Shown in pieces: positions 1,768 through 25,433 of a stretch of DNA of 32,854 bases. Position numbers and translations under genes: made by a program. Each line of letters starts with the position of its first letter. The first letter of the stretch is position 1. Under the pieces are notes generated by a model. The model was given only the letters and a program-made list of their open reading frames with translations. It did no database searches and was not told where the DNA came from. The stretch lies in sequence record DRR378314_1972; one strand, written 5' to 3'.

Positions 1768-2853
1768 TTAAGAAATGCGAATGCGGGGATTAAGGTAAAC
1801 GTAACCGATATCGGAAATCAGCTGTGTCACCAGAACAACGGCAACAGAGACAACCGACACCGCCAATAGCAACTCAATGTCATTATTGCCCGCCGCCTGA
1901 ACCAACAGCCAGCCAAACCCCTTGTAGTTAAACAGGGTTTCAACAATCACCACGCCGTTCAGCAGCCATGGGATCTGCAACATGATCACAGTAAACGGCG
2001 CAATCAGCGCGTTGCGCAGTGCGTGTTTCAGGACGATATCCGAAAACTTCACCCCTTTCAGCCGCGCGGTGCGGATATATTGCGCGGTCATCACCTCCGC
2101 CATAGAGGCCCTTGTCATGCGCGCGATATACCCCATGCCATAAAGTGAAATGGTCAGCACCGGTAAGAAGAAGTTCCAAAAGTTGGCGTCTTTCATTGCC
2201 GAAGTGGCAGATCCCAGAAACAGGGTCTTGCCGTCTATCCAGCCCAGATCGGCCAAGATCGGTGAAAGGCCAAATTTCGACGAGGCCAGCAGCGCGATAA
2301 AAATCACCCCGGACACATATTCAGGTGTGGCCGTTGTCGCGATGGAGAAGGTCGAGAGCGACCGGTCCAGCTTTGATCCTTCGCGCATGCCTGCCAGCAC
2401 CCCGACGATCAGAGCAGAGGGCACCATCAACAGCAACACGCACAGCATCAGCTTGCCGGTGAGGGCCAATCGTGTAGCTACCGTCGCGCCAACCTCTTCC
2501 TTGAAGACCGTTGAATACCCCCAGTCCCCCTGGATCACACCGCAACGGGTGCGGCGGTCCGCCTCGGGGGTATCCGCGTCAAAACAGCGGCCAAATGTTG
2601 TGCCGTCGTCTTTTTCGGTCACCCAACCGGGCATTACACCCAGCCATTGACCAAATTTGACGGGCAGGGGCTGTAAGTACCCCCGATCGTCCAAATACGA
2701 GGTTACAGCCTCGTCTGACATGCGAAAGTTGCCTTGGGTCTTCGCGAGCTTTTCGAGATTCGGATAAAGATTGGTCAGCCAGAACACGATGAAGGTCAGG
2801 CAGAGTGCCGTCAGCAACATCACGCCCAGCCGGCGCAAGATGAAAATTCCCAT
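1768..2853 (-). CDS. ABC transporter permease, DppB/OppB-like
   Basis: N-terminus MGIFILRRL, GDWGYS, YIRTARLKG EAA loop, KHALRNAL, and C-terminus YVYLNPRIR. Confidence 0.92.
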   Translation of the reverse strand: MGIFILRRLGVMLLTALCLTFIVFWLTNLYPNLEKLAKTQGNFRMSDEAVTSYLDDRGYLQPLPVKFGQWLGVMPGWVTEKDDGTTFGRCFDADTPEADRRTRCGVIQGDWGYSTVFKEEVGATVATRLALTGKLMLCVLLLMVPSALIVGVLAGMREGSKLDRSLSTFSIATTATPEYVSGVIFIALLASSKFGLSPILADLGWIDGKTLFLGSATSAMKDANFWNFFLPVLTISLYGMGYIARMTRASMAEVMTAQYIRTARLKGVKFSDIVLKHALRNALIAPFTVIMLQIPWLLNGVVIVETLFNYKGFGWLLVQAAGNNDIELLLAVSVVSVAVVLVTQLISDIGYVYLNPRIRIS

Positions 2854-18941: not shown

Positions 18942-19006
18942 CTTTTTTGTCCAGTTTCTATTCCAATGGCCCATCCCACTGTAAAGATGCCAAACGGAGA
19001 ATGCCC

Positions 19007-19714
19007 ATGCGTGTACTGCTTGTAGAAGATGATCCCACAACATCACGCAGCATCGAGTTGATGCTGACCCACGCCAATTTGAACGTCTATGCGACGGATC
19101 TTGGCGAAGAAGGGATCGATTTGGCAAAGCTGTATGACTATGATCTTATCCTGCTTGATCTGGATCTGCCCGATATGAATGGCCATGAGGTGTTGCGCCA
19201 ATTGCGGTTGAGCCGGATTGCAACACCGATCCTGATATTGTCGGGGTCTGACGATACCGAAAGCAAGATCAAGGGGTTTGGCTTCGGGGCGGATGATTAT
19301 CTGACCAAACCTTTCCACCGGGAAGAACTGGTTGCACGCATTCACGCAATCATCCGCCGCTCAAAAGGGCATTCGCAATCGGTTATCGAGACCGGGCAGA
19401 TTGCGGTGAACCTTGATGCAAAGACTGTCGCGGTCGACAATCAGACGGTGCATTTGACCGGTAAAGAATACCAGATGCTTGAGCTTCTATCGCTGCGCAA
19501 AGGGACAACCCTGACCAAGGAAATGTTCCTGAACCATCTTTATGGCGGGATGGATGAGCCTGAACTCAAGATCATTGACGTTTTTATCTGCAAACTGCGC
19601 AAGAAGTTAAGCACCGCCACAGGCGGGGATAACTACATCGAAACGGTTTGGGGGCGCGGTTATGTGCTGCGCGATCCTGAACCTGTACAGATGGATCTGG
19701 CTGCCTCTGCCTGA
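19007..19714 (+). CDS. ctrA: Response regulator CtrA
   Basis: MRVLLVEDD...[17 protein letters not shown]...[10 protein letters not shown]...[24 protein letters not shown]...[16 protein letters not shown] lies 7 nt before ATG 19007. Confidence 0.98.
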
Positions 19715-19738: not shown

Positions 19739-24012
<4,274 letters not shown>

Positions 24013-24040
24013 CCTCCGCCGGAACATTTTGTTCGCAAAC

Positions 24041-24055
24041 GTTCGCAAAAAGTTC
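24041..24055 (+). promoter_or_regulatory. LexA (SOS) box, alphaproteobacterial type
   Basis: GTTC-GCAAAAA-GTTC is a perfect GTTC-N7-GTTC. There is an extra GTTC at 24031, GAAC at 24022, and GAAC-N7-CAAC at 24079-24093. Confidence 0.8.
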
Positions 24056-24070
24056 TTTACAGTCGGTTAA
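24056..24070 (+). promoter_or_regulatory. CtrA-like box overlapping a -35-like TTTACA
   Basis: TTTA-N7-TTAA, one mismatch, directly adjacent to the LexA box. Confidence 0.4.
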
Positions 24071-24109
24071 AGGAATGAGAACAAAGGGGCAACAAGAGCG
24101 GAGGTTCCG

Positions 24110-24238
24110 ATGACAACGTTAAAAACACTCAAATCCATCGCCAAGCGGTCGAAAGATACGATTGTGCAGGATGCGGTTGGTGCGGCAGCGCTTACAGTGA
24201 TGCTCGTTGGTTGTCTTTATCTGCCTGTTTTTGTTTGA
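24110..24238 (+). CDS. Putative SOS-inducible small membrane protein (42 aa)
   Basis: MTTLKTLKSIAKRSKDTIVQDAVGAAALTVMLVGCLYLPVFV*, with a GGAGG RBS at 24100-24104, a basic N-terminus and a hydrophobic C-terminal TM segment. Below the ORF-track cutoff. Confidence 0.8.
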   Translation: MTTLKTLKSIAKRSKDTIVQDAVGAAALTVMLVGCLYLPVFV

Positions 24239-24258
24239 TTTCTGCCTGCGATCTTATG

Positions 24259-24354
24259 CCGTTTTGCCCCTTTGCATCCGTCCCAAATTGATGCTGTCAG
24301 CGGGTACTGCCTGTCCTTGACTGACACGGGGTTTCTGCCCCAAGGGCAAAACGG
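24259..24354 (+). ncRNA. Candidate structured 3'-UTR or 3'-derived sRNA
   Basis: An 11-bp closing stem CCGTTTTGCCC/GGGCAAAACGG encloses three hairpins (GCATC/GATGC, TGTCAG/CTGACA, GGGG/CCCC). Confidence 0.45.
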
Positions 24355-24378
24355 GTCCCCGTAAGAAACGCTTTCCTT

Positions 24379-24413
24379 GCGCCGCCATCCTTTTGGATGT
24401 GCGGCGTTTTTTT
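24379..24413 (+). terminator. Intrinsic terminator of the small-ORF transcript
   Basis: GCGCCGC-c-ATCC-tttt-GGAT-gt-GCGGCG followed by T7. Confidence 0.8.
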
Positions 24414-24546
24414 GCACTGGTAAGCATACTGGAACCCGTGCCGGGCCTAATGCGTCGCGCCTTAAACTGAGGCCCAAATATCGCTTTTCGCGTTCGTCCA
24501 AAGCGAGAAGCAGCAAATAAGCGATCCATGTTTAAGGCGGGGCGAT

Positions 24547-25002
24547 CTAGGCGTCGCCTGCGGGCTGCATGGCCTGTTCCATGGCCTCAACCATCGCTTC
24601 CATGCTCAACATAATCGAGGCATGGCGGTTTTTATACTCGACCGCCGGGGTCAACACGTCGAACCCGTGAAAAGGGGCGTCAGGCACAGGGCCACCAGAC
24701 TTCAGCATGGCCAGAAGTTGATCTCGGCCCTTTGCTACCACTTCAAGTGAGGCCCCGATTGCACCACCAGCGGCCACGGCGGCGGCGGCCTGACCCAAGG
24801 CGCAGGCTTTCACGTCCTGACCCAGATCGGCCAATTTTCCATCACGCACCTGCACATCGACTGTCACCGCAGAACCACATAGGGGCGAGCGGCGTTTGAC
24901 AGTTGCATCCGGAGCTTCCAGACGGCCCAGATAAGGGATGTCAGCCGCCAGCGCCAAAATGCGTCCGGAATAAAGTTTGATTAAATCGGTGTCGCCTGAC
25001 AT
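24547..25002 (-). CDS. Fe-S cluster scaffold-like protein (IscU/NifU N-terminal family)
   Basis: SPLCGS and KACALGQA motifs. The third motif reads RHASI. Confidence 0.85.
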   Translation of the reverse strand: MSGDTDLIKLYSGRILALAADIPYLGRLEAPDATVKRRSPLCGSAVTVDVQVRDGKLADLGQDVKACALGQAAAAVAAGGAIGASLEVVAKGRDQLLAMLKSGGPVPDAPFHGFDVLTPAVEYKNRHASIMLSMEAMVEAMEQAMQPAGDA

Positions 25003-25067
25003 GTCTGTTTCCTTAGCCGCCTAATGCCTACATAACCTTCCCGTCCGCAGATGCAAATTCATGAAAG

Positions 25068-25433
25068 ATGTCGACCATGTCATTTAATCCATCCGACCTG
25101 ACCTTCAACGATGCCGGTTTGATCCCGGTCATTGCTCAAGACGCAAAGAGCCATGAGGTACTGATGTTGGCATGGATGAATGCAGAGGCGGTCACCCGTA
25201 CCCTAGAGACCCGCCGCGTGACCTATTGGAGCCGGTCACGACAGTCATTCTGGATCAAGGGCGAAACCAGCGGTCATACTCAGGAACTGGTCGAGTTTCG
25301 TTTTGACTGCGATCAGGATTGTCTTTTGGTTCTGGTCAACCAGACCGGCGCGGCCTGTCATACGGGGCGGCGTCACTGCTTTTACCGCGCAGTAAAGGGG
25401 GATGAGGTGGTGGAACTTATTGCGCCTGAATAA
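25068..25433 (+). CDS. hisI: Phosphoribosyl-AMP cyclohydrolase
   Basis: YWSRSR..WIKGETSGH, DCDQD, ACHTGRRHCF. The start is 25068 or 25077. Confidence 0.97.
   Translation: MSTMSFNPSDLTFNDAGLIPVIAQDAKSHEVLMLAWMNAEAVTRTLETRRVTYWSRSRQSFWIKGETSGHTQELVEFRFDCDQDCLLVLVNQTGAACHTGRRHCFYRAVKGDEVVELIAPE

Follow-up and report, generated by a model that had tools for sequence, protein, structure and literature searches.

A recG-linked unit of the Rhodobacteraceae joins a membrane microprotein under putative SOS control to a structured 3' RNA

Background

In the alphaproteobacteria, the LexA box is the direct repeat GTTC-N7-GTTC. SidA of Caulobacter is an SOS-induced inner-membrane division inhibitor of 29 aa, while TisB/IstR-1 and DinQ/AgrB of E. 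coli are LexA-controlled type I toxin systems. Type I toxins are typically patchy in their distribution and often multi-copy, and long structured untranslated regions are common in their mRNAs. SgrS/SgrT and RNAIII/hld are dual-function RNAs, and small RNAs derived from 3' UTRs are found in Rhodobacter. The family Rhodobacteraceae includes the roseobacters, dominant in many marine surface and algal habitats, as well as the model phototrophs Rhodobacter and Cereibacter. To our knowledge, neither an SOS-induced division inhibitor nor an SOS small RNA has been described for this family, and none appeared in the article texts searched. Full-text searches likewise returned no description of the peptide, the RNA or the operator reported below, a result that covers article text as distinct from supplementary regulon tables. 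Passages of PMC6473078, PMC3688512 and PMC2864571 contain nothing on the locus; those of PMC6473078 mention a "GTTC consensus and GAAC consensus".

Here we describe a locus in a stretch of 32,854 nucleotides (sequence record DRR378314_1972, referred to hereafter as the window), which has 82% of sampled words in common with the nearest genome compared (G001). In the best overall explanation, to which we assign a probability of roughly 0.55, the locus is a conserved, self-contained transcription unit attached to the 3' end of recG in the Rhodobacteraceae, controlled by the SOS response and giving rise to a membrane microprotein together with a structured RNA.

Locus and neighbours

The genes preceding the unit in the window are the following:

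18947-19714: ctrA (NF045991, scoring 428 bits where the cut-off is 350)
19772-21925, + strand: ligA, neighbour upstream of recG
21922-24012, + strand: recG, named RecG by both Pfam and NCBIfam; invariant neighbour 5' of the unit

Both the naming through Pfam and NCBIfam and the coordinates agree with the ctrA-ligA-recG neighbourhood assigned by an earlier reading made from the letters alone. The start of ligA lies 57 nt beyond the end of ctrA, and the ligA stop and recG start overlap in an ATGA at 21922-21925 (+ strand), so arranged that the two genes look translationally coupled. Synteny around the unit is strict on one side and frequent on the other: recG lies immediately 5' of it on the same strand in 49/49 loci, and a convergent SufU/NifU-like gene lies 3' of it in 37/49. 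In 31/47 loci, just 17-18 nt lie between the recG stop codon and the first GTTC half-site of the unit. No terminator was found between the recG stop codon and the operator. As recG has no terminator of its own, read-through from ligA-recG should also reach the unit, whose terminator probably serves recG too. Near the unit, a search for a CtrA box returned just single TTAA half-sites, and this candidate was rejected.

Transcript reads over the locus are few. In the RNA sequencing runs, covered by a small share of each, a few contigs of 151-256 nt lie over recG and the downstream gene and are too sparse to give a start, an end or a level. For a relative, a single metatranscriptome contig (778 nt) reaches into 24353-24387 and is no more informative on start, end or level.

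The 42-residue ORF and its peptide

The coding part of the unit is a single short frame:

24110-24238, + strand: 42-aa ORF with an ATG start; basic amphipathic N-terminal half and C-terminal transmembrane half

This ORF is a genuine gene, maintained by purifying selection. In pairwise comparisons over 47 loci, dN/dS has a median of 0.21 when read in the ORF frame, compared to 1.0 and 2.8 in the shifted frames, and the entropy by codon position is 31, 19 and 54. Among 95 representatives, residues D21, G24 and L36 are invariant and R13, L28 and P39 are conserved in at least 90%. Four of these six positions fall within the membrane helix, and this concentration of conserved residues suggests a specific partner. 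The codons for L38-P39 vary synonymously, and CTGCCT occurs there in just 12/47 loci; an RNA-level constraint on this pair of codons was rejected.

The predicted structure is a single helix covering residues 3-41 (pLDDT 89). With its C-terminal half hydrophobic and no tail beyond the membrane, the peptide is predicted to be a single-helix hydrophobic membrane microprotein. Searches for relatives of known function returned nothing: zero Pfam families at E ≤ 0.01, chance-level matches only in NCBIfam, and "hypothetical protein" clusters only in a protein language-model atlas. "Hypothetical protein" is also the NCBI label that some orthologues carry. A search of 1.84 billion representatives yielded 286 matching clusters; almost all have a length of 38-42 aa, and none of the 286 fuses the peptide to a larger domain. 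The sequence-only reading had proposed a translated microprotein with a basic N-terminus and one transmembrane helix, not recognisable as a member of a characterised family. The gene stands where it was placed, at 24110-24238, with the dN/dS given above and with orthologues in 245/301 genomes of the family; the hydrophobic C-terminal half and the one-helix model favour the proposed layout of the peptide, and the Pfam and NCBIfam searches agree with the absence of a family.

Structured 3' RNA and terminator

The 175 nt separating the stop codon from the terminator are a conserved structured RNA, which had been overlooked in the sequence-only reading. Its elements in the window are these:

24242-24371, + strand: structured 3' RNA domain (fold, covariation, covariance model)
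24242-24247, + strand: unpaired CUGCCU
24248-24250 paired with 24369-24371, + strand: closing helix P1
24252-24269 paired with 24344-24366, + strand: extension of P1
24274-24294, + strand: hairpin 1; as folded in the window, GUCCC at 24280-24284 extends over its inner stem and apical loop
24295-24326, + strand: hairpin 2, with CUGCCU in its loop at 24307-24312
24328-24341, + strand: hairpin 3
24355-24359, + strand: bulged GUCCC
24379-24413, + strand: intrinsic terminator, a 12-bp stem with one bulge followed by U7; stem almost invariant across genera

The minimum free energy fold of the window's RNA (z = -5.2) consists of the closing helix, three hairpins and a bulge, and independent folds of divergent sequences lead to the same architecture. 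A covariance model built from 19 sequences (R1) gave one full-length match directly 3' of the ORF in 48/50 sources. The exceptions, which have the ORF without the full RNA, are L047, with no match, and L054, with a weak match of 53 nt only. Pairing holds for 97.9% of cells in the R1 alignment, while shuffles reach 87.2% and slid controls 23-52%; changes on both sides, compensating each other, occur in 20/27 pairs, and 0/500 shuffles reach the observed values. As this alignment was fitted to the model, the independent support matters: in a plain MAFFT alignment of 36 sequences, the long-range helix P1 also shows compensatory changes, one pair being AU in 17, GC in 12 and GU in 4. Pairs of the G-U type are frequent, which fixes the strand of the structure as that of the ORF. 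Two motifs recur in the domain, CUGCCU being mostly unpaired in 70/79 of its occurrences and GUCCC in 79/91.

No match to Rfam 15 was obtained at E ≤ 1 over 23500-25200, and none reached the gathering score when the 3' RNAs of nine loci were searched along with that of the window. Elsewhere in the window, positions 2013-2190 (+ strand) match RF02647, Cis52_sRNA (the Ruegeria cis52 sRNA), with 90.2 bits against a gathering score of 56.

The strong terminator announced by the sequence-only reading is real by its fold. The hairpin spans 24379-24407 and the U-tract runs to 24413; the 61-nt fold has -26 kcal/mol (z = -4.7), and 0/200 shuffles are as stable. A simple consensus scan for terminators reported zero terminator-like sites and thus missed this hairpin. 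Over 50 sequences six pairs of the stem are invariant and the inner pairs covary, an invariance that, judged from the alignment, exceeds what termination alone would require. An 11-nt perfect complementarity between 24082-24092 and 24264-24274 in the window, considered as a possible 5'-3' pairing, was discarded, being neither conserved in other species nor used in the minimum free energy fold of the full transcript.

These features raise the possibility that the RNA domain is itself the main effector, set free from the transcript as a small RNA derived from the 3' end or as an RNA that sequesters a protein, with the CUGCCU and GUCCC loops acting as seeds or binding sites and the peptide being a separable second function of a dual-function RNA. 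The covariation-backed structure, the conserved and mostly unpaired loop motifs, a terminator stem kept invariant beyond the needs of pairing, and the retention of the RNA in 48/50 loci and in 94/151 genomes of the family under strict filters would all fit such a role. Against it, L047 and L054 keep the ORF without the full RNA, and a purely cis-acting role in the control of mRNA stability or translation explains the same data. We treat this possibility as tentative and less likely than not.

Distribution in the Rhodobacteraceae

A six-frame search found the ORF in 23/25 Sulfitobacter genomes, the two genomes without a match being 64% and 82% complete, and gave no convincing match in 16 genomes from outside the family. 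A profile built from 21 ORF sequences matched 245/301 Rhodobacteraceae genomes, corresponding to 244/300 genera, with a single match in nearly all of them. The RNA model, applied under strict filters, matched 94/151 genomes of the family, 86 of which are also positive for the ORF. In seven of the remaining eight genomes, RNA-positive but ORF-profile-negative, there is a diverged ORF in which the D-x2-G signature is retained. Across the class, the RNA model matched 2/151 genomes, both of them Rhodobacteraceae. Each genome has one strong copy of the RNA, adjoining the ORF. A weak, partial second match of 86 nt (E = 1.8e-6) was seen in one Sulfitobacter genome, at G007:C1:451652-451737 (- strand), away from recG. 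The unit is a feature of the Rhodobacteraceae as a family and not a local oddity.

Putative operator and promoter

Between recG and the ORF, the window holds a dense array of GTTC and GAAC half-sites:

24022-24025, + strand: inverted GAAC half-site, read in the window, not conserved
24031-24034, + strand: extra GTTC half-site, conserved, N6 spacing from box 1
24041-24055, + strand: box 1, exact GTTC-N7-GTTC, putative LexA operator abutting the inferred -35
24056-24061, + strand: inferred -35 hexamer TTTACA, near-invariant across loci
24079-24093, + strand: box 2, GAAC-N7-CAAC, one mismatch, putative second LexA operator in opposite orientation
24100-24104, + strand: Shine-Dalgarno GGAGG, 5 nt before the ATG at 24110

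Box 1 is the sole exact match to GTTC-N7-GTTC in the whole window. This by itself says little: 0.85 matches per window are expected by chance, at least one match is found in 57/100 shuffles, and the genome G001 contains 127 exact boxes against 163 for a reversed control pattern, so that there is no enrichment genome-wide. The box alone is not significant, and its significance rests on conservation and context. In this respect the comparison of orthologous loci is informative, box 1 being exact in 47/47 and the triple GTTC-N6-GTTC-N7-GTTC being present in 45/47. Box 2 takes the form GAAC-N7-[C/G/A]AAC in 46/47 loci, with CAAC as the second half-site in 42 and GAAC in 2 of the 47 compared. The gap from box 1 to box 2 is fixed at 23 nt in 46/46 loci, whereas anything from 0 to 62 nt separates box 2 from the ATG, which indicates that the boxes are part of the promoter and not of the coding region. 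In 46/47 loci the start codon is preceded, at 3-18 nt, by an SD-like motif. Four tandem half-sites are present in several species (L003, L012, L015-L017, L020 and L033), where a fourth GTTC lies ~6 nt further upstream.

The half-sites are invariant across loci and the spacers variable. Stretches beside the half-sites, TTTAC and TGAGAACAAA, are likewise invariant, and conservation covers the whole 75-nt block, beyond the half-sites alone; another factor or a promoter constraint could therefore account for part of the footprint. The diverged lineages help to place the promoter within this block. All seven lineages that are RNA-positive and ORF-profile-negative and that hold a diverged ORF have at least one LexA-type box, and three divergent lineages have a perfect GAAC-N7-GAAC as box 2. 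The place equivalent to TTTACA, 17 nt before the GAACA of box 2, is taken by a canonical TTGACG in L175 and L176. From these diverged promoters we infer that TTTACA is the -35 element, adjoined directly by box 1, and that the -10 and the transcription start lie under box 2; the -10 would then fall within the GAGAACA stretch. A search for the whole promoter architecture gave one match per genome in four of five genomes and none in G009, while its reversed control gave 0 matches in the same five.

Two further candidates in this region were considered and set aside. An EcfG-type promoter (GGAAC at 24021 with CGTT at 24040) has a spacing of 14 nt, and its GGAAC is not conserved. An upstream ATG at 24075, taken as the start of a leader peptide or of a longer ORF, lies among conserved nucleotides that fall into different frames between species. 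In the window this ATG opens a uORF of 12 codons (24075-24113, + strand), which begins in the flank of box 2 and ends in a TGA that shares nucleotides with the main ATG; the conserved nucleotides concerned stand, in other species, in frame with the ORF or in a third frame, and the uORF is probably not a conserved leader peptide.

Probable LexA control

The same motif precedes SOS genes in Sulfitobacter. GAAC-N7-GAAC is found before lexA in 5/5 and before recA in 5/5 genomes of the genus, and in G001 boxes of the same type precede uvrA, an MmcB-like repair gene and two radical-SAM genes, and also a serine resolvase, an ArsR-type regulator, a HEPN AbiU2-like gene and several genes without a family. 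These come from a survey of 20 boxes (L060-L079) chosen for A+T-rich spacers among 100 listed of the 127, and hence from a biased pick; they hint that the SOS regulon of Sulfitobacter is wider or linked to mobile elements. The intergenic boxes of this survey have a T ahead of the first GTTC and another behind the second, flanks that agree with those of box 1 and, in reverse complement, of box 2. Box 1 is oriented opposite to the boxes at lexA and recA.

The alternative to be weighed here is that the unit is not controlled by LexA at all, the GTTC/GAAC array serving another regulator or belonging to the architecture of the promoter, and the unit being a housekeeping 3' extension of the ligA-recG operon. 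Such a reading would draw on the frequency of the box motif by chance, on the conservation of the whole block beyond the half-sites, on the non-consensus form of box 2 in most loci, and on the absence of a terminator where recG runs into the unit. It accounts poorly for a box that stays exact in 47/47 loci while its spacers vary, for flanks equal to those at the lexA, recA and uvrA boxes, for boxes that persist or improve to consensus in diverged promoters, and for the position of the inferred -35 and -10 between and under the boxes. We regard it as rather unlikely. Given the conservation of the boxes and the occurrence of the same motif before lexA, recA and uvrA in the genus, control of the unit by LexA is likely.

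The sequence-only reading had pointed to this exact box, its extra half-sites, the second box and the ribosome-binding site, all of which are present where it had located them. As a check it had proposed looking downstream of recG in other genomes for a conserved ORF with a LexA box, and this combination was found (box 1 in 47/47 and recG in 49/49 loci). Its identification of the motif as a LexA box gains weight from the match to the lexA, recA and uvrA boxes of the genus and from conservation across genera, and is on these grounds probably correct.

Proposed function

We suggest that a sigma-70-type promoter, bracketed by two alphaproteobacterial LexA boxes, would be shut by LexA in undamaged cells and opened upon DNA damage through RecA-stimulated cleavage of LexA. 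The transcript would encode a tail-anchored inner-membrane protein of 40-42 residues, with a cytoplasmic N-terminus, one helix and no periplasmic tail, and would run unbroken into the multi-hairpin RNA domain of ~130 nt and the sequence-conserved terminator. The peptide would most likely bind a specific membrane protein and act as an SOS effector. The RNA domain, in which unpaired CUGCCU and GUCCC are displayed repeatedly, may serve as a riboregulator or bind protein, perhaps once it has been processed; alternatively, it may control the stability and translation of its own mRNA.

As to the nature of the effector, our leading guess, still a tentative one, is a SidA-like brake on division or wall synthesis, a role that would call for binding to a late divisome protein such as FtsW, FtsI or FtsN. 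In our gene assignments, FtsW was told from RodA through NCBIfam and the murG neighbour. The sequence-only reading had left the choice between a DNA-damage checkpoint effector and a persistence toxin. The interpretation as a whole is partly supported; the toxin half fits poorly with a single-copy, strictly syntenic and nearly family-wide gene that has no antisense partner in view.

A type I toxin of the TisB/DinQ kind would be an SOS-induced peptide that depolarises the membrane and promotes persistence, the RNA keeping its mRNA inert or stable. The unit does resemble one in having a small, single-helix, hydrophobic peptide behind putative LexA boxes and a long structured untranslated region. 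Yet no Pfam toxin family matches the peptide; the gene is single-copy and strictly syntenic in about four of five genera of the family; and the polar residues R13 and D21 are conserved under a dN/dS of 0.21. No antisense or antitoxin RNA is visible at the locus itself, though an antitoxin may act in trans from elsewhere: the sequence 3' of the terminator is not conserved and offers no conserved candidate for an antisense promoter, and the G-U pairs place the structure on the strand of the ORF only. Moreover, read-through from recG would endanger the cell if the toxin were potent. We therefore prefer a specific effector to a TisB-like toxin, which we judge distinctly unlikely, on the strength of the single copy, the fixed synteny, the family-wide occurrence, the purifying selection, the conserved polar residues and the lack of a visible antisense partner. 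Read-through from recG remains odd for the preferred reading as well, as it would not be expected of a tightly repressed effector.

A bolder proposal, more probably wrong than right by a wide measure, is that all or nearly all Rhodobacteraceae possess a recG-linked, LexA-controlled dual-function RNA, whose peptide of 40-42 aa would be an SOS brake on the cell cycle, acting in the manner of SidA yet unrelated to it, and whose 3' domain, with its repeated CUGCCU and GUCCC loops and invariant terminator stem, would be a separate riboregulator or protein sponge released in the DNA-damage response.

What is new here, and supported in part, is the union of an SOS-type membrane microprotein, under putative LexA control, with a new structured RNA, the two being linked to recG in a whole family. 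If true, the unit is a testable entry to how Rhodobacteraceae couple DNA damage to the envelope or the cell cycle. A new RNA motif would be gained as well, well supported by covariation over ~50 sequences from many genera.

Comparison with known systems

With the alphaproteobacterial LexA regulon, the unit shares an exact box carrying the flanks of the lexA, recA and uvrA boxes of the genus. It differs from that regulon in having two opposed boxes 23 nt apart together with an extra N6-spaced half-site, and in that its target is an unannotated microprotein and not a repair enzyme.

Like the dual-function RNAs SgrS/SgrT and RNAIII/hld and the 3'-UTR-derived small RNAs of Rhodobacter, the unit combines a small ORF with a conserved structured RNA ending in an intrinsic terminator, and is in this sense a candidate for dual function; unlike them, its RNA matches no Rfam 15 family.

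TisB/IstR-1 and DinQ/AgrB have in common with the unit a LexA-boxed small hydrophobic peptide and an mRNA with a long structured untranslated part. The unit departs from both in the lack of an evident antisense or divergent antitoxin RNA at the locus, in being single-copy, near-universal across the family and fixed in synteny, and in the absence of a Pfam toxin match.

SidA and the peptide are both small, chromosomally encoded, alphaproteobacterial inner-membrane proteins with a single helix (as predicted for the peptide described here), behind boxes of the GTTC-N7-GTTC type, and most of the peptide's conserved residues, four out of six, are in the membrane helix, suggesting a specific partner. 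In contrast to SidA, the peptide is longer (40-42 aa) and has a conserved basic cytoplasmic half, and the unit is invariably preceded by recG and bears a structured RNA at its 3' end. A single-copy, near-universal gene with no visible antisense partner and with conserved residues mainly in the helix would match a specific effector of the SidA kind more readily than a toxin of type I.
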